Of a stretch of DNA of 13,152 bases, positions 1 through 13,152 are shown piece by piece; the first letter of the stretch is position 1, and each line of letters starts with the position of its first letter. The translations under genes were made by a program, and so were the position numbers. The notes below the pieces were generated by a model, which saw nothing but the letters and a program-made list of their open reading frames with translations, was not told the DNA's origin and did not search any database. Source of the stretch: Candidatus Eiseniibacteriota bacterium (GTDB lineage: Bacteria; Arandabacterota; Arandabacteria; Arandabacterales; Arandabacteraceae); assembly GCA_043810925.1 (NCBI GenBank), contig JBDRNT010000065.1, positions 1-13,152 on the forward strand, given 5' to 3'.

Positions 1-71
1 GCCGCTGTCTGAGTCACAAGCAGACCACAGCTCATGAGTGCCGCTAGAACGAGAGCTGCTCGGCACGTCAT
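1..71 (-). CDS. 5' end of a putative exported protein (runs off the left edge); not in the supplied ORF track
   Basis: Minus strand reads AGGAGG (82-77), 5 nt, then ATG at 71. Translation MTCRAALVLAALMSCGLLVTQTAA... looks like a signal peptide (basic residue, then hydrophobic stretch). A good promoter lies upstream. Confidence 0.65.
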   Translation of the reverse strand, partial: MTCRAALVLAALMSCGLLVTQTA

Positions 72-169
72 AACAGCCTCCTGGTGCGTCCAACGAAGAA
101 GAGGCAATACGCTTACGACATCTCGGCGTATGAAAAAACCATCGTATAAACTGAACATCGCACCGTTGA

Positions 170-198
170 AGTGTACCACAGCCCGGGCGTCGTGTCAA
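170..198 (-). promoter_or_regulatory. sigma70-type promoter for the gene starting at 71
   Basis: Minus strand: TTGACA (198-193), 17 nt, TACACT (175-170), with TG just upstream of the -10 (TGG-TACACT). Confidence 0.7.
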
Positions 199-302
199 TT
201 GCTCGCCTCAGTCTCCCGGCGCGGCGAAATGGCCACACGCTTAGGCTGCAATCAGTTTGTAGAACCTCACTGGATGGGTCAAGCCGCCTCTTGGCCCGGG
301 AC

Positions 303-429
303 AATTCGGTGAGGACGATTCGGTGACAGTTACCTGATTATCACGTATGTAATTTGGTGACAGTCTGCAAATTGCCGAGTCAGATCTTCCCCGTGGCCGA
401 GCAGATAATTAGTAAGCTGGCACCGAATT
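303..429. repeat. REP/MITE-like palindromic repeat cluster (AATTCGGTGACAGT family), copy 1
   Basis: AATTCGGTGA (303-312), ATTCGGTGACAGTTACCTGATT (318-339), AATTTGGTGACAGTCTGCAAATT (351-373) and the inverted copy AATTAGTAAGCTGGCACCGAATT (407-429). The inverted copy overlaps the arcC stop codon. Confidence 0.7.
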
Positions 430-1387
430 ACTGGGTGAAGTGGGTGCCGGTCTTGCCGAGGAGGGCTTTTTCGATGCTGGGTGGGTCGGTGACAATCGCC
501 TCTTTGCCACCGTGCTCCAGGAACTCGATGATTGCCCGGATCTTTGGCGCCATGCTGCCTTCCGAGAAGTGCCCTCCTCTTGCCAGATACTCTCTGGCCC
601 CGGCAAGCGTCACGCGGTCGAGCGGCTTTTCATCCGGTTGGCCGAAATTGAGATACACCTTCTCGACGGAGGTCGCTATCAAGAGGAGATCCGCCCCTAT
701 CTGCCGCGCAAGAAGCGATGATGTGTAATCCTTATCAATCACCGCAGCGGTGCCCTTGAGGTTGCCCTCCTCATCTGCGACAACGGGAATGCCCCCGCCC
801 CCGCCCGCCACCACTATGATGCCTGCGTCTAAGAGGTTCCTGATTGCCGCTTCCTCCACGATACGGATGGGCTTTGGTGACGGCACGACGCGCCGCCAGC
901 CGCGACCCGCATCCATGCAGACATTCCAACCATCACATTTCCGCCGGCCCTGGGCGACTTCCTCCGTCATGAACACCCCTATCGGTTTCTCCGGATTCTC
1001 GAATGCCGGATCACCGGGATCAACCTCGACCTGGGTGACCACGGTGGCCACAGTCCGTTTCATGCCACGGCGCAGGAACTCATTATAGAGATTCTGCTGC
1101 ACCGCATAACCTATAGAACCCTGAGTGTCGGCGTCGCAGGCATCGAGCGGCACTTCATGCAACTCGTGGGCGGAAAGTTCCGAGCGACGAAGGATGAAAC
1201 CCACCTGGGGACCGTTGCCGTGTGTTATCGCAACGGTCCATCCATGCTCGATCATGTCGGCTATATGAATGCAGGTCTCGTGGGCTGCCGCGTACTGGTC
1301 CTGGACAGTCATGTGCGCCTTGTCCGAGATCAGCGAGTTTCCACCGATTGCGACAACCGCAAGTTTATGTTTGGTGTTGGGAGCCAT
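428..1387 (-). CDS. arcC: carbamate kinase
   Basis: Motifs VVAIGGNSL, ITHGNGPQVG, DTQGSIGY, PEKPIG, DAGRGWRRVVPSPKP, GGGGIPV, AVIDKD and GSMAPKI. ATG at 1387 overlaps the upstream TGA (TGATG, translational coupling); GTG at 1390 is an alternative start. Confidence 0.96.
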   Translation of the reverse strand: MAPNTKHKLAVVAIGGNSLISDKAHMTVQDQYAAAHETCIHIADMIEHGWTVAITHGNGPQVGFILRRSELSAHELHEVPLDACDADTQGSIGYAVQQNLYNEFLRRGMKRTVATVVTQVEVDPGDPAFENPEKPIGVFMTEEVAQGRRKCDGWNVCMDAGRGWRRVVPSPKPIRIVEEAAIRNLLDAGIIVVAGGGGGIPVVADEEGNLKGTAAVIDKDYTSSLLARQIGADLLLIATSVEKVYLNFGQPDEKPLDRVTLAGAREYLARGGHFSEGSMAPKIRAIIEFLEHGGKEAIVTDPPSIEKALLGKTGTHFTQ

Positions 1388-2424
1388 CACTCAGGTTTCT
1401 CGTCTCCCATCGTAAGCGCCATGACGGCCTTCTGGGCGTGAAGCCGGTTCTCCGCCACGTCGTAGATACATGACCTTTCACCACTGGCAACGTCATCGGT
1501 CACCTCGTGCCCCCTGTCGATGGGCATCGGGTGAGTGAAGATCGCATCCTCGGTAAGCGCCATCTTAGCGGTATCACAGATCCAGTCGGTGTATTTCAGG
1601 GCTTTCTCAATCTCTTGTTGCCTCTGAAACTCGCCACCGATGTATGCCTTGGGACTCATCCAGTTACGTGAATACACAACGTGGGCGCCCTTGTAGCCCG
1701 CTTCTGCATCGTTCGTCATCGAAAGCGTCGCTCCGTTGGCTTTGCAGTTCTCGTGGGTCCATCTGATGATTTCCCCGTCGAGATCATACCCCTCAGGAGC
1801 GGCAACCGTGACGTCCATGCCGAAACGGGAACCTATGAGCATGGCCTCCTGGATGCTACACAGCGAACGGGCAAGCGCTCCGTGCCCCCACGTCACCAGG
1901 AGCTTTTTACCCTTGACGGCCGCGGGGTCGAACCCACCACCGGGAGTAAGCCACTCGATCCACCCCATGATGTCGGCCAGTCCCTGGCAGGGATGGAACT
2001 TGTCATGCGCCATCGAAACCACAGGTATGTCGGCCCACTGGGCATACTCGCGGATCAACTCCTCGCCCTCGCCATACGCGCTCACCTTATCTTCGAGAAT
2101 TCTGATCCCCAGACCGCAGGCATATCTGCTCATCACCCTGGCCGCGTCCTCGATGGTCTCCCCCGCAGTGGTCGCCGTCTTCAGACGCATGCTCTTGGGT
2201 TCAAGAAACTGTGCATGTCCCCCGAGCTCTGTTGCCGCACACTCAAAGCTCTGCCGGGTGCGAACCGACGGGTTATAGAAAAACATAAAGAAGGTGCGGT
2301 CCTTAAGGACATTCGTATAGCCGTAACGGTCGCTCTTCATCTTGACGGCCAGATCGAGCGCCGCCAGCAACTCCTCGTGCGACCAGTCCTGGGTCGTAAC
2401 CAGATCGCGTCCCTTTAGAGTCAC
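1387..2424 (-). CDS. ornithine/aspartate carbamoyltransferase-family protein (divergent, knotted AOTCase/YgeW-like); substrate unknown
   Basis: FYNPSVRTR (STRT-type carbamoyl-phosphate motif), HPCQGLAD, HPMP (in place of HCLP) and AENRLHAQKA. Likely start is GTG at 2424 (VTLKGRDL), preceded by GGAGG at the end of the upstream gene, rather than the ORF-track start at 2514. Confidence 0.88.
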   Translation of the reverse strand: MTLKGRDLVTTQDWSHEELLAALDLAVKMKSDRYGYTNVLKDRTFFMFFYNPSVRTRQSFECAATELGGHAQFLEPKSMRLKTATTAGETIEDAARVMSRYACGLGIRILEDKVSAYGEGEELIREYAQWADIPVVSMAHDKFHPCQGLADIMGWIEWLTPGGGFDPAAVKGKKLLVTWGHGALARSLCSIQEAMLIGSRFGMDVTVAAPEGYDLDGEIIRWTHENCKANGATLSMTNDAEAGYKGAHVVYSRNWMSPKAYIGGEFQRQQEIEKALKYTDWICDTAKMALTEDAIFTHPMPIDRGHEVTDDVASGERSCIYDVAENRLHAQKAVMALTMGDEKPE

Positions 2425-2429
2425 GGTTT

Positions 2430-3500
2430 CTATTTCCCTCCCATCAGGAGCGTCATGATCGCCTTGTGCGCATGCAGGCGGTTCTCGGCCTCGTCGAATA
2501 TCGCAGATCTCCACCCGCTCTTGACATCGGTCCTGTCCATAACGTCATTGTTGACTTCGTAGCCGCGGTCCGCCGGCAGGCAGTGCATATAGATCGCTTC
2601 CTGGTCAGCGGTCTCCATCAGCTCGGATGTCATCTTCCAGCTCTTGTACTTGTTGAATATCTCGAGTGTCTTCTCCGGATTGTTCTCACCGACCGGGGGC
2701 GGGAAGATGGGGGTTGCTGCCCAAGCCTTTGGATACACCACATGTGCCCCCTCGAACGCCGATTCGAAGTCGTTTGTGACGCTGAAAGTGGTACGGTTCA
2801 TCCTGGCATTGGCTTCGCACGCGGCCAGAATCTCGGGATCGAGCTCCATCTCCGGAGGATGGGCGAGCACCGTCTCACAACCCATCAGTGACGCGGCGAT
2901 AATGACGCTCTGGGGAACTGCACGGGGCTTATGCACGCTCGGGCTATAGGCCCAGCTCATGACGAACTTGACACCCTTGAAGGTGCCGAACTTCTCTTTG
3001 ACCGTCATCACATCGGCCAGTGCCTGGCATGGATGATACTTATCGCATTCCATATTTATCACGGGAACATCCGACCAGCGGGCGAACTCCTGCATCATCG
3101 CATGGGCACCGCCATACTCCCAGTCCACCGGATCGCCGTAACAGCGGATCGCGATCCCATCACCGGTGCGGCTTAAGACCCTTGCGACGTCTGAGACACG
3201 TTCGGTGATATACGCGATTTCCTTACCCTCAAGCGCGGGCGTGTAGATCTTGGAGGGATCCAGGAAATGGGCGTGCCCGCCGAGCTGTGTCATACCCGCT
3301 TCAAATGTGTTCCGGGTGCGCAGGCTCTGGTTGTAGAAGATCATGAACAGGGTCTGCGCGCGCAACAGATGATCATGGGGCTCGCGCAGTGCGAACCGGC
3401 GCTTGAGATCGAATGCGACATCAAGCATGGTCTCTACCTGTTCCTTGTCCCAGTCCCGCAGGGTCATGTAGTCTTTGCCTCTAAAACTGTCTGTTCTCAT
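2430..3500 (-). CDS. knotted carbamoyltransferase, YgeW-like
   Basis: FYNQSLRTR, HPCQALAD, YMHCLPADRG and EAENRLH. The segment MSWAYSPSVHKPRAVPQS resembles the YgeW-type WAYSPSxxKPxxVPQ proline-rich loop. Confidence 0.9.
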   Translation of the reverse strand: MRTDSFRGKDYMTLRDWDKEQVETMLDVAFDLKRRFALREPHDHLLRAQTLFMIFYNQSLRTRNTFEAGMTQLGGHAHFLDPSKIYTPALEGKEIAYITERVSDVARVLSRTGDGIAIRCYGDPVDWEYGGAHAMMQEFARWSDVPVINMECDKYHPCQALADVMTVKEKFGTFKGVKFVMSWAYSPSVHKPRAVPQSVIIAASLMGCETVLAHPPEMELDPEILAACEANARMNRTTFSVTNDFESAFEGAHVVYPKAWAATPIFPPPVGENNPEKTLEIFNKYKSWKMTSELMETADQEAIYMHCLPADRGYEVNNDVMDRTDVKSGWRSAIFDEAENRLHAHKAIMTLLMGGK

Positions 3501-3616
3501 GATCGATACCCTTTCCGGTTACTCCCGAACTTAAGTTTCTCTCCAGCCGCAGGTCTCCTCCCCGGCGACTGAGTGATCCTCCAGCGTGGTCGCGGGGGGA
3601 TAACTGCAATAAGGTG

Positions 3617-3644
3617 ATTATAATGAACCCCCGTCGGTTGTCAA
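3617..3644 (-). promoter_or_regulatory. consensus sigma70 promoter for the carbamoyltransferase-carbamate kinase operon
   Basis: Minus strand: TTGACA (3644-3639), 16 nt, TATAAT (3622-3617). Both hexamers are perfect consensus. Confidence 0.8.
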
Positions 3645-3690
3645 GACCACCCGGCCATGATAGATCCGACCCACCGGGCGTTCGTACCAT

Positions 3691-3719
3691 TTGATTTCAG
3701 TTTACGACAGTATTAGATT
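3691..3719 (+). promoter_or_regulatory. putative sigma70 promoter for the PLP enzyme gene
   Basis: TTGATT (3691-3696), 17 nt, TAGATT (3714-3719), about 40 nt upstream of the start codon. Confidence 0.5.
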
Positions 3720-3758
3720 CATTTGAGATCAAAGCAGGCTGGAAAGGAGCTGATCCAC

Positions 3759-5225
3759 ATGACCACAAAGGAACAGGTGCTTGAGAACACGGTAAGACGA
3801 TGCAGGGAAAGGGATATCATAATCCCGACCTATGACCAGATGAGAAACCCTGAGAAGGTCCCCCAGGGCATAAAGGACGAGCTTAAGAACGTCGGGCTCT
3901 GGGATCTTCACTCGAGAAACCTCTTCAGGATAACCTGGAAGAACGAGCCGGTGAAGCACGGCGGAGGTTTCGGCGGTGTCAACTTCCTTGAGATCCCCAG
4001 CGAACTCAGTGGTGTTAAGGCGAGGATCATCATCATCCTCGGCAAGTTCTTTCCGACGGGCTCTCATAAGGTGGGTGCAACCTTCGGGCCGCTGGTAGAG
4101 AAACTTGTGCGCGGTGAGTTTGATCCCACGACCCAGAAAGCCCTCTGGCCTTCGACCGGAAACTACTGCCGCGGTGGAGCATACAACTCATATCTCCTGG
4201 GATGTCCGGCAATTGCAGTGCTACCCGAGGGTATGTCGAGGGAACGCTTCGAGTGGCTTGAGAAAGTCGGCTCGGAAATCTATGCCACCCCCGGCAGCGA
4301 AAGCAATGTCAAGGAAGTCTATGATAAGACCCACGAACTTAAGAGTGAAAGACCGGACGAGATAGTTGTCCTCAACCAGTTCGAGCAGATGGGCAATCCC
4401 ATCTGGCACTATGCCGTGACCGGACCCGCACTGGAAGAGGTCTACGAGCAGGAAAAGAAGGGTCAGGCAAGGTTCTCAGGCGTCTTTCTCACCCAGGGCT
4501 CCGCGGGTACGCTTGGATGCACTGACTACCTCAGGAAGAAGTTCCCACTGGTCAAGGTGTGTGCGGGAGAGGCGCAGCAGTGTCCGACTCTTCTCCTGAA
4601 TGGTTTCGGCGCGCACCGTATCGAGGGGATCGGCGATAAGCATGTGCCGTGGGTCCACAACATGAAGAACATGGATATGGTGGCGAGCATAGATGACGAT
4701 CATTGCATCCGGTTGATACGGCTCTTCAACGAACCGGCCGGTAAGAAGTATCTCGCAAAGATGGGTGTCGAGAAGAGCCTGATAGACAATCTCGATCTCT
4801 TCGGCATTTCATCCGTGGCCAACTTGCTCGGCACCATAAAAATGGCCAAATACTATGAGATGAACGAAAACGACATGCTCTTTACGATCGCCACCGACTC
4901 CATGGAACTCTACCAGTCGAGGTTAAAGGAACTCCACGACGAATACGGTGAGTATTCCGAGTTGGATGCGGCAAGGGACTTCGAGCTTTGCCTGGTGGGT
5001 CAGACGTTTGACTGGCTTCTGGAGCTCTCCTACTGGGACAAGAAGCGTATGCACAATCTCAAGTACTTCACATGGATTGAGCAGCAGGGCAAGACCGTGG
5101 AGGAGCTCGATGCCCAGTGGTATGACGATGTCTACTGGAAAGTCCAGCTCAGCTCTTTCAAAGAGTGGGACAGCCGCATAAAGGAGTTTAACGAGCGAAC
5201 CGGTCTCCTCAAGAAGTATCAATGA
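3759..5225 (+). CDS. pyridoxal-5'-phosphate-dependent enzyme, fold type II (cysteine synthase/threonine dehydratase-like superfamily) with long N- and C-terminal extensions
   Basis: FPTGSHKVG (PLP lysine), PSTGNY, VVLNQF, GSAGTLG (phosphate loop) and HRIEGIG. ATG at 3759 follows an AAGGAG RBS. Confidence 0.88.
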   Translation: MTTKEQVLENTVRRCRERDIIIPTYDQMRNPEKVPQGIKDELKNVGLWDLHSRNLFRITWKNEPVKHGGGFGGVNFLEIPSELSGVKARIIIILGKFFPTGSHKVGATFGPLVEKLVRGEFDPTTQKALWPSTGNYCRGGAYNSYLLGCPAIAVLPEGMSRERFEWLEKVGSEIYATPGSESNVKEVYDKTHELKSERPDEIVVLNQFEQMGNPIWHYAVTGPALEEVYEQEKKGQARFSGVFLTQGSAGTLGCTDYLRKKFPLVKVCAGEAQQCPTLLLNGFGAHRIEGIGDKHVPWVHNMKNMDMVASIDDDHCIRLIRLFNEPAGKKYLAKMGVEKSLIDNLDLFGISSVANLLGTIKMAKYYEMNENDMLFTIATDSMELYQSRLKELHDEYGEYSELDAARDFELCLVGQTFDWLLELSYWDKKRMHNLKYFTWIEQQGKTVEELDAQWYDDVYWKVQLSSFKEWDSRIKEFNERTGLLKKYQ

Positions 5226-5232
5226 TAAACAA

Positions 5233-5250
5233 GCGACGGAAGTCGTCTTT
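5233..5250 (+). terminator. weak hairpin downstream of the PLP enzyme gene
   Basis: GCGAC-GGAA-GTCGT followed by CTTT, 8 nt after the stop. The stem is short and the U-tract poor. Confidence 0.3.
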
Positions 5251-5284
5251 GTCAGGCGGTTCAAGCGTCGGACGCAGGACAGAT

Positions 5285-5358
5285 AATTCGGTGACAGTTC
5301 ACGAATTCTTGGAATATGCCCGGCGAAGGATGGTCAATTAGTCGACTGTCACCGAATT
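5285..5358. repeat. REP/MITE-like palindromic element (AATTCGGTGACAGT family), copy 2
   Basis: AATTCGGTGACAGTTCACGAATT (5285-5307) and inverted AATTAGTCGACTGTCACCGAATT (5336-5358). The outer 14 bp are a perfect IR, with a 28-bp spacer. Same family as 303-429. Confidence 0.75.
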
Positions 5359-5364
5359 GCACAA

Positions 5365-5398
5365 CGGGCCATTGAAGAGATGATACTCCAATGGCCCG
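5365..5398. repeat. inverted repeat/hairpin next to the IS630 insertion site
   Basis: CGGGCCATTG (5365-5374) and CAATGGCCCG (5389-5398) form a perfect 10-bp stem. Confidence 0.55.
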
Positions 5399-5407
5399 GT
5401 TCTATAA

Positions 5408-6550
5408 CTAGTGTAGTGTCTCAGTAATACCTTGACAATATCCACTACCCGTGATACAAACGGGATTATGTGGAAACCAACCGATGCTCTCGTGATTACC
5501 TCCGAACAACGAAGAACCCTGGAAGCCTGGGTGCGTGCCAGGACGACACCGCAGCGCGTGGTCCTGCGCTCGCACATCTGTCTACTCGCCGCCGATGGAA
5601 AATCCAACAATGCGATTGCCCATCAATTGGGAACCTCCCGGCCCACCGTTATTCTCTGGCGCAGTCGATTCAAAGAACAGGGCCCCCGGGGCCTGGCCGA
5701 AGATGCACCCCACGGCCCCAGCCCCCAACGTTTGCATGCGGCCAAGATCAAGGAAATCGTAGAAAGAACCTTGCATACCACACCCACCGATGCGACCCAT
5801 TGGAGTACGCGAACGCTGGCCAAAGAACTCAGAGTCAGCCATTCCACGGTCGCGCGGGTTTGGGATGCGCACGGTTTGCAACCTCACCGTGTGAGAACTT
5901 TCAAATTGTCCAGAGATAAACAGTTCGTCGAGAAGCTCACCGATGTCGTGGGACTGTATTTGAACCCACCGGACAAAGCCATGGTGCTTTGTGTAGACGA
6001 GAAGTCCCAGGTTCAGGCCCTGGACCGCACACAACCCGGATTGCCCATGAAAAAGGGTCGCTGTGCAACGATGACCCATGATTACAAGCGCAACGGAACA
6101 ACGTGTTTGTTCGCCGCGCTCAATGTCTTGGACGGTACGGTGATTGGTACCTGTTATCCCCGCCATCGACACGAAGAGTTTCTCAAGTTCCTGCGCAAGG
6201 TTGACCGGGAGGTGCCCAGAACTCTCGATCTCCATCTGATCCTGGACAATTATGGGACGCACAAACATCCGAACGTCAAACGGTGGCTTAAAAAACATCC
6301 GCGCTTTCACTTGCACTTTACCCCAACCAGTTCCTCCTGGCTCAACCTGATCGAACGCTGGTTCGCTGAAATCACTCGCAAGCGGATTCGAAGAGGTGTG
6401 TTCCGAAGCGTTCCTGAACTCATTGCTGCCATCGAAGAATTCATTGAGATCAACAATCAGAATCCAAAACCCTTTACATGGACCAAGAAAGTGGACGAGA
6501 TATTGGAAAAAGTCGGCCATTGTAAAGCCGTTATTGAGACACTACACTAG
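5408..6550 (+). mobile_element. IS630-family insertion sequence, apparently intact
   Basis: Left end CTAGTGTAGTGTCTCAGTAATACCTTGACAAT versus reverse complement of the right end CTAGTGTAGTGTCTCAATAACGGCTTTACAAT. CTAG (containing the TA target typical of IS630) occurs at both ends (5408-5411, 6547-6550). TTGACA-N17-TACAAA lies just inside the left end. Confidence 0.93.
5468..6550 (+). CDS. IS630-family DDE transposase
   Basis: HTH region (SNNAIAHQLGTSRPTV), THWSTRTLA, and catalytic motifs CVDEKSQVQAL, LILDNYGTHK and SSWLNLIERWF. Likely start is ATG 5468. The stop TAG lies in the terminal CTAG. Confidence 0.95.
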   Translation: MWKPTDALVITSEQRRTLEAWVRARTTPQRVVLRSHICLLAADGKSNNAIAHQLGTSRPTVILWRSRFKEQGPRGLAEDAPHGPSPQRLHAAKIKEIVERTLHTTPTDATHWSTRTLAKELRVSHSTVARVWDAHGLQPHRVRTFKLSRDKQFVEKLTDVVGLYLNPPDKAMVLCVDEKSQVQALDRTQPGLPMKKGRCATMTHDYKRNGTTCLFAALNVLDGTVIGTCYPRHRHEEFLKFLRKVDREVPRTLDLHLILDNYGTHKHPNVKRWLKKHPRFHLHFTPTSSSWLNLIERWFAEITRKRIRRGVFRSVPELIAAIEEFIEINNQNPKPFTWTKKVDEILEKVGHCKAVIETLH

Positions 6551-6809
6551 GTCGCAGGCAAGATGGGCAGGAGGGGTGCGATAGCGGGTGGGGTCGGGAG
6601 CATGGGTGCCACCGCCTTGCCATCTGTCCACACCTTTGCTGTCGCAACCCCAGCACACGAATACACTCCACTCCTGCTGGGCATCAATGACCGCGCAGTC
6701 ACTCTCTCCGGTCGCGCTTGTAAGTACGACCCCGGCCTTAATGTTTGCGGTACGGCCTGCTTCCATCAACACGACCTCGACTTAATCTACACATCATCCC
6801 ACGTAGTGA

Positions 6810-7457
6810 TCACTGCTGGCTGTCACTCTCTGGTTCCTCTACGCCGACCAGGGTCCGTGGCAGGAACAAGGCCAGCGCGTTGCCCGCCGCATGCGCCACG
6901 ACGCAGGCCAAGAGCGAGCACCCTAGAACGAGACCTCCCCCCAGGATCGCCCCGTAGCCCATGACGACGAGCGCGCCGCCAAACCCCTTCTCGAAGTGCA
7001 GGAGACCGAACAGAACCGCGCTGATCCCGAGTCCCCAGCCGACGCTCGTGTAGAATGAGACCGCGGAAAGCACCACTCCGCGAAACACGAACTCCTCCAC
7101 CACCGCTGCGCATGCGATAAGGTAGAGCGCGGTTGCCATCTCTCCGTGGTTCGGCCTCCACTCCTCACGGGAGACGACGGCTCCCTTCGCGAAGAGGCGC
7201 TGGATGCCCATTGTCCAGGCGACCATGGCCAGGATCATCATGGGAGCAGCCACCGCGTCGAGCGCTCGTACAGAAGCCGCCTTGACCACGATCCACGCGG
7301 TCACCTCCGCCGTGACCCGTGACCGCGACGCCAGGGATTGCGCCCGTTCCGATCCGACCAAGCTGACGACCAGGGCGATCGCCGCCAGCAACCCAATGGT
7401 CTGGTTCACGACAAGCGAGCGAACCGAAGGGGATCTTACTGGTCGTGTGGCGGACAC
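6810..7457 (-). CDS. CPBP family intramembrane glutamic endopeptidase (CAAX protease/Abi family)
   Basis: Several hydrophobic helices and the motifs EEFVFRG, SAVLFGLLH and AHAAGN. GTG start with GAGGAG about 10 nt upstream. Confidence 0.88.
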   Translation of the reverse strand: MSATRPVRSPSVRSLVVNQTIGLLAAIALVVSLVGSERAQSLASRSRVTAEVTAWIVVKAASVRALDAVAAPMMILAMVAWTMGIQRLFAKGAVVSREEWRPNHGEMATALYLIACAAVVEEFVFRGVVLSAVSFYTSVGWGLGISAVLFGLLHFEKGFGGALVVMGYGAILGGGLVLGCSLLACVVAHAAGNALALFLPRTLVGVEEPESDSQQ

Positions 7458-7491
7458 CTTGCGATTGCTCCTCTCTCAACAAGCCGTGCGC

Positions 7492-7523
7492 AGCCAACTA
7501 CGACGTATGCTGATCCGTATAAC
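7492..7523 (-). other. putative attI-like recombination site, leftward-facing
   Basis: Minus strand GTTATACGGATCAGCATACGTCGTA-GTTGGCT. Matches 18 of 24 nt of the rightward site (7837-7860) and ends in the same AGTTGGC core, about 40 nt before the CPBP start. Confidence 0.55.
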
Positions 7524-7574
7524 GGCGCTTTGTACAGCGCCGGAGCAGTGTAGTACTCAGAGGTTCATACTCCC

Positions 7575-7603
7575 CAAATACATCAGTCTCAAGGGATTGT
7601 CAA
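7575..7603 (-). promoter_or_regulatory. putative Pc-like promoter, leftward
   Basis: TTGACA (7603-7598), 17 nt, TATTTG (7580-7575). Matches 23 of 30 nt of the rightward promoter. The -10 is non-consensus at its last position. Confidence 0.55.
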
Positions 7604-7632
7604 CTTCCTTCCAGCCTTGGTAGTTCTTACAT

Positions 7633-7719
7633 GGTTTCCGCTTAACTCCGGACCTCACGACACTGCTCTGGCTCGTGAGGCGGTTTGTGGCTGGGTGACC
7701 ACGGAGTTAAACTGAAACC
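7633..7719. repeat. central branched inverted repeat between the two promoter/attI modules
   Basis: GGTTTCCGCTTAACTCCG (7633-7650) and CGGAGTTAAACTGAAACC (7702-7719) are complementary at 16 of 18 positions. Inner hairpin CCTCACGA (7653-7660)/TCGTGAGG (7673-7680). Confidence 0.75.
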
Positions 7720-7748
7720 GCCTAACACTCTTCCCGCGAGTAATTGTG

Positions 7749-7777
7749 TTGACAACCGCCTGATTCTGGGGTATTTG
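7749..7777 (+). promoter_or_regulatory. putative cassette promoter (Pc), rightward
   Basis: TTGACA (7749-7754), 17 nt, TATTTG (7772-7777), about 80 nt upstream of the first cassette boundary. Confidence 0.6.
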
Positions 7778-7829
7778 TGGAGAGTATTCAGCAGAGTGTT
7801 AGACGGAAAGAGTGGCCATCTAGAACGTA

Positions 7830-7861
7830 CTTAACAGGATCCGTATAAGCAGCAGTTGGCA
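7830..7861 (+). other. putative attI site heading the cassette array
   Basis: CGTATAA-GCAGCA-GTTGGCA has the same TAA-N6-GTT spacing as attI1 (TAA-AACAAA-GTT). GTTGGCAC (7855-7862) is the exact complement of GTGCCAAC (8289-8296) at the end of cassette 1. No attC-family hairpin precedes it. Confidence 0.7.
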
Positions 7862-7881
7862 CTACGGAAATGGAGGAACAC

Positions 7882-8286
7882 ATGGATTACTCTGAAAGCC
7901 TCGAAGGGATGCCTGGCGATCCGAACGGTCCTGCCTATCGGAAGACTGAGACACGGACCGGTCCTCCTCTCGACTACGTCGCAGAAAAACTCAAACTATC
8001 CTTGGAAGCGCTCCATAGCACAATCCGCGCAATCCAGGAGACGGTTCCAGAGAATCTGCCTCAGCCTCAGGCAGCCATCGGATCGACCTATTCGGTCAAG
8101 CAGGATGCTCTCTTCTCACCCGCATGGGACGCGTTCCGCTGTGGACTTACAGCGTTTCTTGCTTTACAGAATTTCTTGGTTCTTGCGAATGACCAGGGCA
8201 TTTTCGACCGCCTCTTGGGGTATTCGAGGGAGGAGTTCAGGAATTGGCTGGGCAACATAGAAAGAGAAGGTTTAGTCTCCGGGTAG
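7882..8286 (+). CDS. gene cassette 1: hypothetical protein (~134 aa)
   Basis: The ORF fills the interval between the GTTGGCA core and attC1. ATG 7882 follows GGAGG (7872-7876); ATG 7870 is an alternative. No motif recognised. Confidence 0.75.
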   Translation: MDYSESLEGMPGDPNGPAYRKTETRTGPPLDYVAEKLKLSLEALHSTIRAIQETVPENLPQPQAAIGSTYSVKQDALFSPAWDAFRCGLTAFLALQNFLVLANDQGIFDRLLGYSREEFRNWLGNIEREGLVSG

Positions 8287-8289
8287 GTG

Positions 8290-8389
8290 TGCCAACCAGT
8301 GGTTCGAGACGGACTGCCTTGCGGCGTCACGGCTCTTGCAGACGCAATAGCCTTGCCGCCTTGCCCGCCGTTCAGCCACGCCGTTAGAT
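8290..8389 (+). repeat. attC site 1 (100 bp)
   Basis: R'' TGCCAAC (8290-8296), 5 nt, then L'' GTT[C]GA[G]ACGG pairing with CCGTTCAGC, 6 nt, R' GTTAGAT (8383-8389). Shares the internal GCGGCGTCACGGCTCTTGCAGA..GCAATAGCCT..GCCGCCTTGCC sequence with attC2 and, more loosely, attC3. Confidence 0.9.
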
Positions 8390-8403
8390 GACAAGGAAGG
8401 CAT

Positions 8404-9243
8404 ATGAAGTTGCTTCTTATTGTGTCAGTGATGTGTGTGATTGCATCGCCTGCTTTGTCTTACGAGGGTCTGGGCGAGGCTTTCCAGGCGACCAATCGGG
8501 AGGATGCAGTTCAATATATCATTGACAAGTGCCGTCTGGATTGGACGACTGGGTGGCCGACGGGCCACCCTCGCCAATGGAACGACGTCAGGGCCTATGT
8601 CTCACCTAACCGTCGCTACTGCCTGCTAAGCAAAGCAGGAGCGTCCGAGTGGGGTCAGGGCGGGGATGCTGAGTACTGCCTAGTCGGCGTGGATTCCGGG
8701 CCGATTTGGCTGAAGCACGGAACGATTGGCGGTGAACCGGGAGTTTCAGATCACGGGACTGTCGCCATATTCGAGGGGTGGAAGAGTGCCTCTGAGTTGA
8801 GGTATATTCCTGTTGGGCTCCTCATGATCAGCGCCGATGACGACACTTTCTTCACCAGAAGGTGGTCGAACCATATTCCCCGTCCGATTCAGGGGAAGCG
8901 CTTGTCCGAGAGCTACGGATTCAGTCTCGACGGTCGCTTCTTCATCGTTACAATGAACGTCGCAGATCCTGATGAAGACACTCCGCGGGCCAGCGGATAC
9001 AACAATACCATGTTGCATTGCATCGATCTTGAGGAAGGATCTGAGCGAGTCGAGGATCTGGGCCACTTCTGGCCCAAGACGCACGAGATTACTGACAAGG
9101 GTGCTGAGCTCACTGGGGAGTGGCAGCGCATTCTCAGCACACATGGCTCGTATGACTATGGATTCTACCGCATAACTTGGTCACCGTGGCAGGTTGAGAA
9201 GATTGTCGTTGGTACCAGAGACTTGGGCGAAGTTAGCCGCTAG
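8404..9243 (+). CDS. gene cassette 2: exported hypothetical protein (279 aa), probably beta-rich
   Basis: Signal peptide MKLLLIVSVMCVIASPALS and an AAGGAAGG RBS. Cassette ends GTTAGATGAC (8383-8392) and GTCATCTAAC (9243-9252) are perfectly complementary. VSPNRRY and FSLDGRF resemble beta-propeller blade motifs (inference). Confidence 0.85.
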   Translation: MKLLLIVSVMCVIASPALSYEGLGEAFQATNREDAVQYIIDKCRLDWTTGWPTGHPRQWNDVRAYVSPNRRYCLLSKAGASEWGQGGDAEYCLVGVDSGPIWLKHGTIGGEPGVSDHGTVAIFEGWKSASELRYIPVGLLMISADDDTFFTRRWSNHIPRPIQGKRLSESYGFSLDGRFFIVTMNVADPDEDTPRASGYNNTMLHCIDLEEGSERVEDLGHFWPKTHEITDKGAELTGEWQRILSTHGSYDYGFYRITWSPWQVEKIVVGTRDLGEVSR

Positions 9244-9245
9244 TC

Positions 9246-9253
9246 ATCTAACC
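9246..9253 (+). repeat. attC site 2, left fragment (R'' box), separated from the rest by the IS
   Basis: ATCTAAC (9246-9252) lies 2 nt after the cassette 2 stop. Joining it to 10836 onward restores ATCTAACCAGTGG..., matching attC1 TGCCAACCAGTGG.... Confidence 0.85.
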
Positions 9254-9327
9254 CCTATGAGGCCTACCCGAGTCAAGCGCAAAAACGCCCGCGTTAAGCT
9301 GGCGGGGTAGCCGGCTTTGTCTTTTCA

Positions 9328-9741
9328 TCAAGACCGAACGACCTGACTTAGTTTCACATCTGGCGGTGTGGGCAGATGCTGTCCCACACAAACCCCTATA
9401 CAAGGTTCAGGGCTCCGTGAAAGGAGCCTGCGAAGGTGGTGAGCCTTCGCGCCCTAGAAACACATCGGATCCCTCTTAGTGTCCCAGTCAAACGACGGGC
9501 TGCACGGGTGAGCATGCGCCAGTTAGTTTTGGGCTCACGTGAGGGGCAGGACAGGTCAGTCTTGACCGATATGTCATGTCGGAGCGGAGCGGCCATCCAA
9601 TCCAGCGCGAGAGGCTGCCTGAGATAAGCCAAGTAGCGCAGGCATGGTCTTATCCACAAGCATTTTGGCACATCGCATCTACCTAGCAGGCTTCTCACGA
9701 GACGGCTCCAGTTAGACGTGTGGCTTGACCGCTCCCTCCGA
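9328..9741 (-). ncRNA. candidate bridge RNA/seekRNA of the IS110/IS1111 element
   Basis: Non-coding region 3' of the transposase with two closed domains: 9579-9741 (TCGGAGCGGAGCGG/CCGCTCCCTCCGA) and 9328-9565 (TCAAGAC/GTCTTGA, GACCTG/CAGGTC). Internal hairpins at 9366-9389, 9408-9430 and 9430-9450. Contains short matches to the donor junction and to the attC target. Confidence 0.65.
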
Positions 9742-9742
9742 G

Positions 9743-10753
9743 TCAATTGCTAAGGAATCGTTTCATGTCGAATGCCCTTTGTCTGAGGAGCACGAAGTAG
9801 ACAGCTCTTCCGAGTTTGTGGGCGAGGATGGAAAGTGACTTAGCCTTTCCGTATCTTGCCTGAAGTCTGTTTCGATACTTCATCCCCTCGGAGAATGCCC
9901 ACTTAAGGTGCATGTTCCCGATCTTCCTGCCCGAGGTGCCATACTTCTTGCCGGCGGACTCCTTGGAGCATGCTACGAGCCGGGCATAAGATACGAAGTT
10001 GCTCACTGTAGGGAAGCGCGATATGTCATGAATCTCATACAGGATGGCCAGGGAGAGAATCTTGCCTATGCCGGGTACAGTCTTTAGCAGATAGAGAGAC
10101 TGGGAATCATGGTGCCGGGCGTTCTTCAAGATGAAGAGTTCCAGGCGTTTCATGAGTTGGTCGTAGTGGTCTATGAGTTCCAGGTCAGCGCTGATACTCA
10201 TGCTGACGTCGGGATCGGAGAACTGCTCGGCAACCCCGGCGCGGTGAGTCTTGTAGGCAATCTTCTTGCCGAATGGTGGGAGGTTGTACTGGCTGTTGGT
10301 GTTCTGGATGTGACCTAAGAGATCAGCCCGCCGTCGCATGAGGTAGTGACGTCGTCTGAGGAGATCTCTGGTGGCTCTCATCTCAGGTGGGTAGACATAG
10401 GCCTGGGGTATCATTCCGCCCCTAAGGAGGCCGGCGATCTTTCGGGAGTCTACACGATCGTTTTTGGCCTTCCCTCCATGTATGGCTCTCATGTATAATG
10501 CATGATCGAGGACGAAGGGGATGGTTTCCCTATGACAGAGGTCTGCGAGCCAGTACCAAGCGAACATGCACTCAGCACATACGACGATGTCCTCTCGGTA
10601 AGGCTGGATGACTTCGAGGAAGGCATCTGGCTCGGCGGGGATGTTGCGGTGAAGGACGACGTCTCCGTGGTCGTCGAGGACACAGACGTACATGGACCTG
10701 GTGTGCAGATCGACACCACAATAGAAGAGGTGCTCTTTGGTATAGAATCTCAT
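9743..10753 (-). CDS. IS110-family DEDD recombinase/transposase (possibly carrying a short in-frame deletion)
   Basis: RuvC-like DEDD residues (CGVDLH, VCAECM, AKNDRVDS), LKTVPGIGKI, and ESAGK (catalytic serine region). AAGGAGG RBS upstream. Confidence 0.95.
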   Translation of the reverse strand: MRFYTKEHLFYCGVDLHTRSMYVCVLDDHGDVVLHRNIPAEPDAFLEVIQPYREDIVVCAECMFAWYWLADLCHRETIPFVLDHALYMRAIHGGKAKNDRVDSRKIAGLLRGGMIPQAYVYPPEMRATRDLLRRRHYLMRRRADLLGHIQNTNSQYNLPPFGKKIAYKTHRAGVAEQFSDPDVSMSISADLELIDHYDQLMKRLELFILKNARHHDSQSLYLLKTVPGIGKILSLAILYEIHDISRFPTVSNFVSYARLVACSKESAGKKYGTSGRKIGNMHLKWAFSEGMKYRNRLQARYGKAKSLSILAHKLGRAVYFVLLRQRAFDMKRFLSN

Positions 10754-10835
10754 TGGGGTCTCCTCCTTTCAATGAGATGGGTTACCCCGAGCATACGCTC
10801 GGGAGGCTCCTGAGGGGAGGCCTCAATGAGTATCC

Positions 10836-10926
10836 AGTGGCTTGAGACGGACGGCCGTGCGGCGTCACGGCTCTTGCAGAAGCAATAGCCTCGCCGCCTT
10901 GCCGTCGCCCAGGCACACCGTTATAC
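10836..10926 (+). repeat. attC site 2, right fragment (reconstituted site 99 bp)
   Basis: AGTGGCTTGAGACGGACGGCCGTGCGGCGTCACGGCTCTTGCAGAAGCAATAGCCTCGCCGCCTTGCC...GTTATAC (R' 10920-10926) is closely similar to attC1. Confidence 0.9.
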
Positions 10927-10950
10927 GGTGCAAACACAAATGGAGGGGAA

Positions 10951-11613
10951 GTGAGAAGACTCTTCCGGCCTGGTATTGTGCTTACGGTCCTGTTCGCGTT
11001 GACGGTCCCAGCCAGTGAGGGTCGCGAGCTGAAGGCCGCACTGGCCTTATCAGCTTCGGCCGGATCCGGGATTGCAGGAAGAAAATGGCACTTTCAAGGC
11101 GTGAATGATGTGAGCGTGAGTGCGCCGAAGGCATGCGGCTTGGCCGTTGAATACGGCCCGGTGCAATCTGCGTGTGGCACGGAGCTCTTGTTAATCGTGG
11201 AGGGATCGGTCTTCACTGAAGGAACTAGCGAGACTGAACTGCAGGATCGTCCATTCGGTACCGCCAAACTGGCCATCAATTCAGCGGCAGGCCTAGTATA
11301 CGTTTCCCTTTCGGTACCCAACCGATTAGCCCCTTTCGTGCGACTCGGGCTAGGAGCGGCAAGAGTCCGGTTCGAAGAGACATATTCCGACGCCCGGCTC
11401 AGAGATATTGACATAGATTATTGGGACCTTGCTTATGGGCTCGGCGCCGGCATCCAATATTCGATCACACCAAGGATCAGCATCTCAGCATTCTACGATG
11501 GGATCTACGTCCCCGGTGACCGGCTTAGCCCCAGGAGTAATGGCCTTGAAACGGGGATTCGCACCGGGTGGGGCGCAGAGTGGACCGGACTGAGGGTTCA
11601 CATTCGCCCATAG
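10951..11613 (+). CDS. gene cassette 3: outer-membrane beta-barrel protein (8-stranded OmpA/OmpW-like class)
   Basis: Signal peptide and amphipathic strands APFVRLGLGAARV, LAYGLGAGIQYSITPRISISAFY and TGLRVHI. GGAGG RBS with a GTG start. Cassette ends GTTATAC (10920-10926) and GTATAAC (11619-11625) are complementary. Confidence 0.8.
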   Translation: MRRLFRPGIVLTVLFALTVPASEGRELKAALALSASAGSGIAGRKWHFQGVNDVSVSAPKACGLAVEYGPVQSACGTELLLIVEGSVFTEGTSETELQDRPFGTAKLAINSAAGLVYVSLSVPNRLAPFVRLGLGAARVRFEETYSDARLRDIDIDYWDLAYGLGAGIQYSITPRISISAFYDGIYVPGDRLSPRSNGLETGIRTGWGAEWTGLRVHIRP

Positions 11614-11618
11614 GTATT

Positions 11619-11715
11619 GTATAACTTGTGCATTCAGCGGTCTTGCTGCGGTGTTACGGCTCTGGCAGAACAAGAGCCTCGCCACCTTGCCTGCCGCTGA
11701 CGCGAGACGTTAAGG
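11619..11715 (+). repeat. attC site 3 (97 bp)
   Basis: R'' GTATAAC, 5 nt, CA[T]TCAGCGG ... CCGCTGACG, 6 nt, R' GTTAAGG (11709-11715). Internal GCGGTGTTACGGCTCTGGCAGA..AGCCTCGCCACCTTGCC is related to attC1 and attC2. Confidence 0.88.
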
Positions 11716-11728
11716 GCAAGGTGAGCCG

Positions 11729-12226
11729 ATGGTAGATAAACTGACGGAGAAACGGAAGCGGACGGGTCTGAGACCTTTGCTCGCCATACTCATTGCCACT
11801 GGTGTCGTGGCCGGTTGCTCGGCAGACAAGGGCAGCGGGCCCGAGGCAGTCAACCATCGCCCAACCATCGAGGAGATAGCTGACACGACAGCAGTGGTCG
11901 GAGACACGCTCTACCTACAAGTCACGGCTTCCGACCCAGACGGTGATGACCTGGAGTTCAGCTTGGTTATCCCTTGCAGTTGGTCAGAGATGCAGCAAGG
12001 TCGCTGTCCTATTGCATCTATCAGGTCTGCAGACCTTGTGTTTTGGTTTTGGCCTCGTACGTTCGATCTATCCTTTCGTAGTTTCAGCATAAAGGTGGAC
12101 GACGGTCACGGGGGACGAGATTCTACTGCTTTTGGGGTCGCGGTTTCGTCCTCAGGAGGCTCAGGAGCGACGATCATGCAACAAAAAGTGTGGGCTTTCT
12201 TCGAGAGTGTAAGATATTTTGTGTAA
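11729..12226 (+). CDS. gene cassette 4: lipoprotein with an Ig-like/cadherin-like domain, 3' end replaced by IS256 sequence
   Basis: Basic N-terminus, hydrophobic core and lipobox VVAG-C. NHRPTI, ASDPDGDDLEFS and VDDGHGGRDS fit cadherin-like/Ig repeats. Codons from 12203 on (ESVRYFV*) come from the IS256 IR. Confidence 0.75.
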   Translation: MVDKLTEKRKRTGLRPLLAILIATGVVAGCSADKGSGPEAVNHRPTIEEIADTTAVVGDTLYLQVTASDPDGDDLEFSLVIPCSWSEMQQGRCPIASIRSADLVFWFWPRTFDLSFRSFSIKVDDGHGGRDSTAFGVAVSSSGGSGATIMQQKVWAFFESVRYFV

Positions 12227-13152
12227 ATGGCTATAGTTTATACTCAGACAAAGGAGAGACTCTATGGCCAAGCAAGATCCCACCGACAATCTGCTGGATG
12301 AGCTCCTTGCGGGCAAGACGGCCGAGGAGATCCTCGGTAAGGACGGGCTTCTCGATGATCTGACGAGGCGGCTTGTCAATAGGGCGCTCGAGGGTGAGAT
12401 GACTCACCACCTGGGCTACCCACCTCACTCCCCGGCTGGTCGCCACAGCGGCAACTCCCGCAACGGCAAGACGACGAAGATCGTCAAGGGTAAGACTGGC
12501 GAGATGGAGATCGCCGTTCCTCGTGATCGCAACAGCGCCTTCGAGCCCGAGTTGGTCAAGAAGCACCAGCGCCGGCTTCCCGGGTTTGATGACAAGGTGG
12601 TCGCACTCTATGCGCGAGGCCTTACCACTCGGGAGATCACCGGACATCTTAAGGATCTCTACGGGGTCGACGTATCGCCATCGTTGATCTCGGCGGTGAC
12701 GGACACGGTGATCGAGGATGTGGTGGCCTGGCAGAGCCGTCCTCTGGATGCGGTCTATCCTATAGTCTATCTGGACGCGATCCATCTTAAGATGCGCAGT
12801 GAGGGCCAGGTACGCAACCAGGCTGTCTATCTGGCCCTGGGTATCAACCTGGATGGCGGCAAGGACCTTCTGGGGCTTTGGATCGGCGAGAGCGAGGGCT
12901 CGAAGTTCTGGCTTGGGGTATTGACTGAACTTCAGAACCGGGGGGTTGAGGACATCCTGATCGCCTGTGTGGATGGCCTGAAGGGCTTTCCGGAGGCGAT
13001 CGAGACGGTCTATCCCAAGACTCAGGTTCAGCTCTGTATCATTCACCTGGTGCGTCACTCGCTTCGCTACGTGAGATGGACGGAGCGAAAGCGGGTGGCC
13101 GCTGACCTGCGGTCGATCTACACAGCGGCAACGGCAGAGGCGGCAGAGCAGG
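12203..13152 (+). mobile_element. IS256-family insertion sequence (left end; continues beyond the window)
   Basis: GAGAGTGTAAGATATTTTGTGTAAAT at 12203 has the IS256-family terminal IR pattern and is followed 61 nt later by the transposase. Confidence 0.88.
12264..13152 (+). CDS. IS256-family (Mutator-like) transposase, partial; missing from the ORF track because it has no stop in the window
   Basis: ATG 12264 after AAGGAG reads MAKQDPTDNLLDELL...ALEGEMTHHLGY...NSRNG...VPRDRNSAFEP...LYARGLTTREI...YPIVYLDAIH...ELQNRGVEDILIACVDGLKGF...QLCIIHLVR. Confidence 0.96.
   Translation, partial: MAKQDPTDNLLDELLAGKTAEEILGKDGLLDDLTRRLVNRALEGEMTHHLGYPPHSPAGRHSGNSRNGKTTKIVKGKTGEMEIAVPRDRNSAFEPELVKKHQRRLPGFDDKVVALYARGLTTREITGHLKDLYGVDVSPSLISAVTDTVIEDVVAWQSRPLDAVYPIVYLDAIHLKMRSEGQVRNQAVYLALGINLDGGKDLLGLWIGESEGSKFWLGVLTELQNRGVEDILIACVDGLKGFPEAIETVYPKTQVQLCIIHLVRHSLRYVRWTERKRVAADLRSIYTAATAEAAEQ

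Follow-up and report, generated by a model that had tools for sequence, protein, structure and literature searches.

A probable bridge/seekRNA with an additional internal-loop domain in the 3' non-coding part of an IS1111-type element inserted in an attC-like site

Downstream of the transposase gene of an IS1111-type insertion sequence, we identified a 3' non-coding region that most likely represents a bridge/seekRNA, with a target-binding loop in a first domain (domain 1) and a donor-binding multiloop in a third one (domain 3). The element was found in a stretch of 13,152 nt (contig JBDRNT010000065.1, positions 1 to 13,152, hereafter the window), and its comparison with 160 related loci, 80 from genomes and 80 from metagenomes, revealed both a conserved RNA structure and a covariation between RNA guides and the DNA they match. 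Transcription, protein binding and catalysis of this predicted RNA system are deduced by analogy with characterised elements. The non-coding tail very probably encodes a known kind of guide RNA, pairing with the target and with the element's own ends, and would therefore stand as a fresh example of a recently described mechanism rather than as a new one. A preliminary description of the same DNA had already recognised here the downstream non-coding part of an IS1111-type element, with a target domain 5' and a donor domain 3'; this reading was right in outline, but wrong in two of its four guide assignments.

The element and its insertion site

The element covers 1.58 kb on the minus strand and splits one attC-like repeat at G|TT. 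Its main features are the following:

9254-10833, minus strand: body of the IS1111-type insertion sequence, with junctions set against an intact paralogous attC-like site (8296-8386) and ends that recur in relatives
9252-9253 and 10834-10835: GG core dinucleotide, one copy on each side of the element
9258-9265, partner at 10818-10825: right sub-terminal inverted repeat TGAGGCCT (plus-strand letters), kept in relatives
9271-9276, minus strand: TTGACT, a -35-like box near the right end, CTTGAC being conserved in a 43-sequence alignment
9743-10753, minus strand: transposase gene, 336 aa, IS110 family RNA-guided transposase according to Pfam and NCBIfam

The left end is short and the right end long, with 80 nt upstream of the gene (10754-10833) against 489-490 nt of non-coding DNA downstream of it (9254-9742). 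The repeat TGAGGCCT, set in by 8 nt at the left end and by 4 nt at the right, has a length of 8 bp, within the 7-17 bp of the sub-terminal inverted repeats expected for the IS1111 group of the IS110 family. Together with the long non-coding region downstream of the transposase gene, such repeats constitute the IS1111 layout in the published descriptions of Siddiquee et al. (PMC11187229) and Durrant et al. (PMC11208160). No second full copy of the element occurs in the assembly.

The transposase scored 51.7 bits against PF01548, 61.3 bits against PF02371 and 171.4 bits against NCBIfam NF033542 (cut-off 140), and displays the DEDD (RuvC-like) N-terminal domain and the PF02371 C-terminal domain of the IS110 family. 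In the translation, the area in which IS1111 proteins carry a C-terminal GL-P----S(T)G motif reads RLVACSKESAGKKYGTSG. Compared with L006, the closest among the relatives listed, the protein lacks the 11 residues that follow KWAFSE, an in-frame gap between residues 289 and 290 (window 9875-9890) located in or near the PF02371 domain; relatives' frames are mostly 347 aa long. Because these 11 residues of the C-terminal domain are missing, the transposase of this copy may be inactive or defective. Sequencing runs matched this DNA in small shares only, and the sole RNA contig recovered from four runs, 152 nt long and originating from a groundwater metatranscriptome, was identical to 9933-10078 inside the transposase gene and may be either a transcript or carried-over DNA; with no contig on the non-coding region, this four-run search says nothing either way about the guide RNA.

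On the plus strand of the window, short same-strand reading frames are spaced by ~100-nt repeats that open with a RYYYAAC-type box and close with a GTTRRRY-type box, like attC sites. The repeats at 8296-8365 and 10834-10903 share 91% identity, a third, partial copy occurs at 11647-11691, and both boxes, ATCTAAC (9247-9253) and GTTATAC, are present. We refer to these sites as attC-like since the single-strand fold of the intact copy was only weakly better than that of shuffled sequences (z -2.11) and no integron integrase exceeded the cut-off in the assembly (best match 111.9 bits vs a cut-off of 265). Because the element splits such a site, the neighbouring cassettes are probably fixed in place.

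Other features were observed in the surroundings. The cassette-like gene beside the interrupted site (10951-11613) encodes a predicted outer-membrane beta-barrel protein (PF13505, 29.1 bits, barely above the cut-off). A second mobile element, with an IS630-family transposase (295 bits), lies at 5408-6550 just upstream of the cassette-like array, bounded by 32-nt inverted repeats (5408-5439 and 6519-6550). Short palindromic repeats of the TCGGTGACAG...AATT type are present in at least four copies, in direct and inverted pairs, at 318-430 and 5284-5358, two copies being found just outside the IS630 element.

Structure of the RNA and covariation of its guides

Pattern scans of species-representative genomes provided 316 relatives among 334 candidate stretches, of which 80 were kept (55-77% identity), and the metagenome set comprised 80 loci (59-82% identity) kept out of at least 571 relatives among at least 598 candidates. 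Nearly all kept loci occupy the same kind of site, the right flank reading G, T and T at positions 1-3 in 98%, 98% and 100% of 48 guide/flank pairs. Mutual information was computed column by column for the RNA alignment and the left end, and the whole matrix was scanned against the flanks, but noise and shared ancestry prevailed in both. Because neither of these unanchored scans recovered the left-target guide, ends and RNA segments were located by fuzzy anchors, leaving out of each count the loci with a contig end or a missing anchor. Left flank and left-target guide were both located in 44 of the 80 genome loci, giving 43 distinct pairs; among the 80 metagenome loci the guide was located in 59 and the flank in 70, giving 51 distinct pairs. 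No Rfam family matched within the window (all families, E up to 1). The RNA features are listed from the 5' to the 3' domain:

9586-9735, minus strand: domain 1, target-binding domain, closing stem 9726-9735 / 9586-9595
9720-9728, minus strand: conserved scaffold, earlier proposed as the left-target guide, within a GG-YC-AAGCC motif preceding the loop
9711-9718, minus strand: right-target guide, RNA CGUCUAAC, pairing with transposase-sense G-TTAGATG (8 pairs, one G.T wobble)
9600-9607, minus strand: left-target guide, with CGCU (9604-9607), core GG (9602-9603) and AU (9600-9601)
9471-9549, minus strand: domain 2, internal-loop domain paralogous to domain 1, loop strands 9522-9530 AAAACUAAC and 9487-9496 GUCGUUUGAC
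9351-9466, minus strand: domain 3, donor-binding multiloop, outer stem 9457-9461 / 9351-9355, inner stem 9450-9455 / 9403-9409, two hairpins between
9457-9466, minus strand: candidate left-end (right-donor) guide GAUGUGUUUC, antisense to the core G plus ATACTCATT, with mismatches
9391-9399, minus strand: right-end (left-donor) guide, with AUAGG (9395-9399), core GG (9393-9394) and UU (9391-9392)

Of the two closed domains initially described, the 5' one was recovered, closed in the single-sequence fold of the region (MFE -163.2 kcal/mol, z -2.31, 4/100 shuffles folding as well) and by a covarying stem. The proposed 3' domain (9328-9565) is not one domain and holds two conserved structured units, at 9471-9549 and about 9351-9466. 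All nine pairs of the domain 1 closing stem had changed on both sides among 40 homologues, with 95.8% of cells paired. For the whole structure tested in this domain (40 sequences), 94.5% of cells were paired vs 35-47% with a slid partner, and the covariation score of 0.754 (0.07-0.17 when slid) was reached by 0/500 shuffles; pair counting detected no inner helix in domain 1 at the threshold used. Since many of these paired cells are G-U, and would thus be A-C on the opposite strand, a minus-strand RNA is favoured.

The internal loop of this structured RNA matches both strands of the target. Apart from one G.T wobble, the left-target guide CGCUGG-AU repeats the left flank CACTGG, and its AU (9600-9601), in the handshake position, repeats the two bases that open the left end. 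In the genome set, guides agreed with their own left flanks with a score of 3.33, counting identical bases only, vs 2.28 +/- 0.18 in permutations (0/20000, 43 pairs), and the metagenome set gave 3.41 vs 2.35 +/- 0.15 (0/20000, 51 pairs). Poor fits were observed for L008-L010, L014, L019, L020, L024, L031 and L063, and a few loci fit their left flank only with a one-base bulge; off-target or half-matched insertion has been reported for IS621 in a preprint (10.64898/2026.08.31.748434).

The right-target guide faces the second core G and the attC R'' box. Its assignment as an attC R-box guide, first made for 9711-9717 and here extended to 9711-9718, was supported by relatives in which changed guides match changed targets. 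Permutations of the genome set reached the observed agreement in 66/20000 cases with identical bases and 70/20000 with wobble allowed; the metagenome set did not replicate it (13660/20000), because guide and R'' box are nearly invariant there. This covariation is weak because most relatives keep CGYCUAAC and most targets GTTAGRC, and the informative cases are the exceptions, where an altered guide occurs with an altered flank:

L007: guide GUUCAAAAC, flank GTTTTGAA
L028: guide CGUAUAAC, flank GTTATAC
L040: guide CGCACAAC, flank GTTGTGC
L052: guide UCGAUAAC, flank GTTATCT
L127: guide CGCAUAAC, flank GTTATGC

Variant guides unfit for their own flanks were also found, in L031, L058 and L069. L007, whose transposase is 75% identical, is inserted at a site that departs from the usual GTTRRRY type, with flanks ...ATGGCCGG and GTTTTGAATC..., and its left-target guide UGGUCGG-AU matches its own flank TGGCCGG-AT. 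With both domain 1 guides changed to match, this locus presents, at the level of its sequence, as a natural retargeting event.

Domain 3 is closed by the outer stem GUUUC/GAAAC, for which L083 carries the compensatory variant GCUUC/GAAGC and L071 appears to carry AAUUC/GAAUU (alignment read by eye). The single-sequence fold of the region contains both hairpins announced between 9399 and 9467. The right-end guide is located between the inner stem and the 3' hairpin, inside the outer stem, a placement that agrees with the multiloop position of IS1111 donor nucleotides as described by Durrant et al. (PMC11208160). It reads AUAGGGG-UU, the sequence of the right end and core to which the opening two bases of the right flank are added, and the role proposed early on for this segment (AACCCCTAT) was borne out, as it tracks right-end variation in both sets (0/20000 in each, 30 pairs each). 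Relatives carry AUAAGUG, AUAGGUG, AUACGUG or AUAUGUG in step with their own right ends, and at right-end position -4 own pairs matched at 0.87 and 0.97 in the two sets, against backgrounds of 0.46 and 0.49.

Domain 3 thereby supplies a second loop matching the joined ends of the element, in which the right-end guide is firm and the left-end guide a candidate. For the latter, 9457-9466 is the best candidate, proposed with low confidence from sequence comparison, its equivalent in most relatives being GAUGAGUUUC. Opposite left-end position 6, the candidate offered C:G at 27/34 and 17/20 loci (genome and metagenome sets), A:U at 7/7 and 6/8, T:A at 2/7 and 2/2, and G:C at only 1/5 and 0/4; opposite position 7, T:A occurred in 2/2. 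Our confidence is low because its U opposite left-end position 2 never pairs and because its 3' half doubles as a strand of the outer stem, able to pair with GAAAC at 9351-9355.

As a separate observation, L061 contains the right-end motif twice, 245 nt apart, in the 513-760 nt past its transposase stop, and the first motif is followed by a sequence identical to the start of its own domain 3 (GTTTCTAGGTCG...). This arrangement suggests that a copy entered a TTG|TTTC site within the very stretch that encodes its own left-end guide.

Three other explanations of the region were weighed. It could be a structured, guide-less 3' UTR, serving as a stability or terminator element, with matches arising from the conserved attC and end sequences. 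In its favour, conservation of the R'' box and of the element ends would make some matches recur even if they had no function, and the right-target test did not replicate. However, in two data sets the left-target guide agrees with left flanks that were acquired independently, both target guides of L007 changed in coordination, and A/G, C and T variants at right-end position -4 are mirrored in the right-end guide, leaving this explanation improbable.

We consider very improbable the exact guide set of the preliminary description, in which the target was read by 9711-9717 and 9720-9728, 2 nt apart on one RNA strand, and the donor by 9391-9399 and GGAT (9467-9470). All six strings that it named are in place (AACCCCTAT at 9391-9399 and 9250-9258, GGAT at 9467-9470, GTTAGAC at 9711-9717, GTGGCTTGA at 9720-9728 and 10837-10845), and in this single copy the agreement of 9720-9728 with the left flank over 9 nt is striking. 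When the non-coding region (9259-9742) was shuffled by mononucleotides, an exact 9-nt match to the right junction arose in 2/300 shuffles, but one to the left flank arose in 21/300 and is not beyond chance. Across 60 pairs, moreover, the equivalents of 9720-9728 did not follow the left flank (2.883 vs 2.823 +/- 0.125; 6705/20000 in fixed register, 5215/20000 in any register), their AGCC core persists in relatives even when the left flanks are unrelated, and three of the nine bases (9726-9728) belong to the closing stem and undergo compensatory changes. The identity in this copy is best read as chance atop a conserved scaffold, and the odd closeness of the two proposed target matches is explained by 9720-9728 not being a target guide. 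The guide that does follow the left flank is found on the facing strand of the same internal loop, ~110 nt closer to the 3' end of the RNA. GGAT (RNA AUCC) adjoins the left-end candidate and is not conserved, its equivalents being ACC, ACG or ACA in most relatives where core plus left end would need ATCA; the caution originally attached to this 4-nt match, that it is not significant, stands. The covariation between guides and DNA anticipated across homologues was found for the left-target (9600-9607) and right-end guides, in the genome set only for the right-target guide, and not for 9720-9728.

Finally, a protein-coding region is scarcely credible: a 116-aa frame (9396-9746, minus) and a 63-aa frame (9436-9627, plus) are both open, but the 116-aa frame, the only one scanned, has no Pfam family, many 1-2 nt insertions or deletions separate relatives across the region, and paired columns change on both sides with pairs kept, indicating selection on RNA structure and not on codons.

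An additional internal-loop domain

In addition to the target and donor domains of the bridge/seekRNA reading, the RNA contains domain 2, built in the same way as domain 1, with a strand ...CUAAC-UGG opposite ...YUUGA-N-URGG. Its stems were paired in 50-53 of 53 sequences with compensatory changes, including a double change peculiar to the window. The domain keeps CUAAC in its 5' strand and YUUGA in its 3' strand, which correspond to the central, invariant part of the attC junction. Within an element, the 3' strand of domain 2 is similar to the left-target guide of domain 1 (3/20000) and drifts together with it, and it weakly follows the left flank (49/20000 and 113/20000); in the retargeted L007, domain 2 is unchanged.

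Several partners were tried and rejected. The 5' strand did not follow the right flank (4486/20000 and 14587/20000), no covariation was seen by eye with the right-end -35 box or the left sub-terminal repeat, and pairing with the domain 1 scaffold, also judged by eye, was inconsistent across clades. An antisense match to the left end was discarded as well, the base opposite position 6 being G in 34/34 loci whatever the left end. No partner for domain 2 was thus found among the flanks, ends, -35 box, sub-terminal repeat and domain 1 scaffold. It is conceivable, though we regard it as rather unlikely, that domain 2 is a functional third guide loop, that is, a second target-type loop beside the programmable one, and not a relic.

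Proposed mechanism and relation to known elements

As in characterised IS1111 members, the minus-strand RNA is probably transcribed together with the transposase. No sigma-70-like promoter was detected inside the integrated element. If it behaves like IS621 and ISEc11, the element would be excised in circular form. This would place TTGACT (9271-9276) 18 nt from GATACT (10829-10834), a pair of boxes from which the gene and then the RNA could be transcribed. This role is proposed after ISEc11, an IS1111 family member described with a junction promoter in its circle (PMC11187229); the corresponding promoter here, composed of a -35-like box near the right end and, at the left end, a -10-like box, which only circularisation would bring together, is deduced from sequence alone.

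In the assembled complex, the 5' strand of domain 1 (9711-9718) would pair with the transposase-sense strand of the right flank, at the attC R'' box. The 3' strand (9600-9607) would pair with the other strand, because its sequence equals left flank plus core, and would then present AU matching the left end. In domain 3, 9391-9399 would carry the right end and core and then UU matching the right flank, with 9457-9466 as the likely antisense guide for the left end. With domain 1 paired to the attC junction and domain 3 to the joined ends of the element, the RNA-recombinase complex would bring these ends and the G|TT site together for strand exchange by the DEDD recombinase at the core. In relatives, the first core base appears to follow the target at the left junction and the element at the right junction; in L006, for example, the left core is GG, and the right core and both guides read TG.

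The closest points of comparison are the attC-targeting IS1111 members ISKpn4, ISPst6 and ISPa25, whose seekRNAs have been purified (Siddiquee et al. 2024, PMC11187229). They share with the present element the DEDD transposase, the sub-terminal inverted repeats, the long non-coding region downstream of the gene and a target formed by one attC end beside GTTAG, and the guide order described for IS1111 seekRNAs in that study, top-strand match first and bottom-strand match further 3', is the same here. By contrast, ISKpn4, ISPst6 and ISPa25 insert 11 nt 5' of GTTAG according to Table 1 of a review (PMC13604230, a secondary source), whereas the present element, like nearly all its relatives, is inserted at G|TT of the box itself. 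The RNAs of the three described members measure 82-86 nt in their short form and about 150 nt in their long form (PMC11187229); here the two target guides lie 104 nt apart in a conserved RNA of ~385 nt with three domains. The extra loop sets this clade apart from those seekRNAs as they are described in the published account.

The published descriptions of the IS621 bridge RNA (Durrant et al. 2024, PMC11208160; Hiraizumi et al. 2026, PMC13626964) show a similar organisation, with two separable loops each reading both strands around the core dinucleotide, sense guides in which the dinucleotide after the core matches the partner DNA as handshake guides, and a right-donor guide that pairs discontinuously. 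The present element differs from these descriptions by an RNA located 3' of the gene, against 5' in IS621, by a reversed order of guide strands within the loop, by donor guides in a multiloop, by a GG core (TG in most relatives) against CT in IS621, and by its extra paralogous loop.

These elements constitute a widespread, uncharacterised and environmental addition to the RNA-guided IS1111 elements. They insert at G|TT of the attC box, unlike the attC-targeting members studied so far, and provide a complete, naturally occurring set of guide/target pairs, together with a clear retargeting case in L007. If domain 2 were indeed a guide loop, the RNA would be a three-loop bridge RNA, in which one loop reads the constant part of a structured target and another its variable part, and a functional target-like loop of this kind would be relevant to the question of how structured targets come to be recognised specifically by bridge recombinases.
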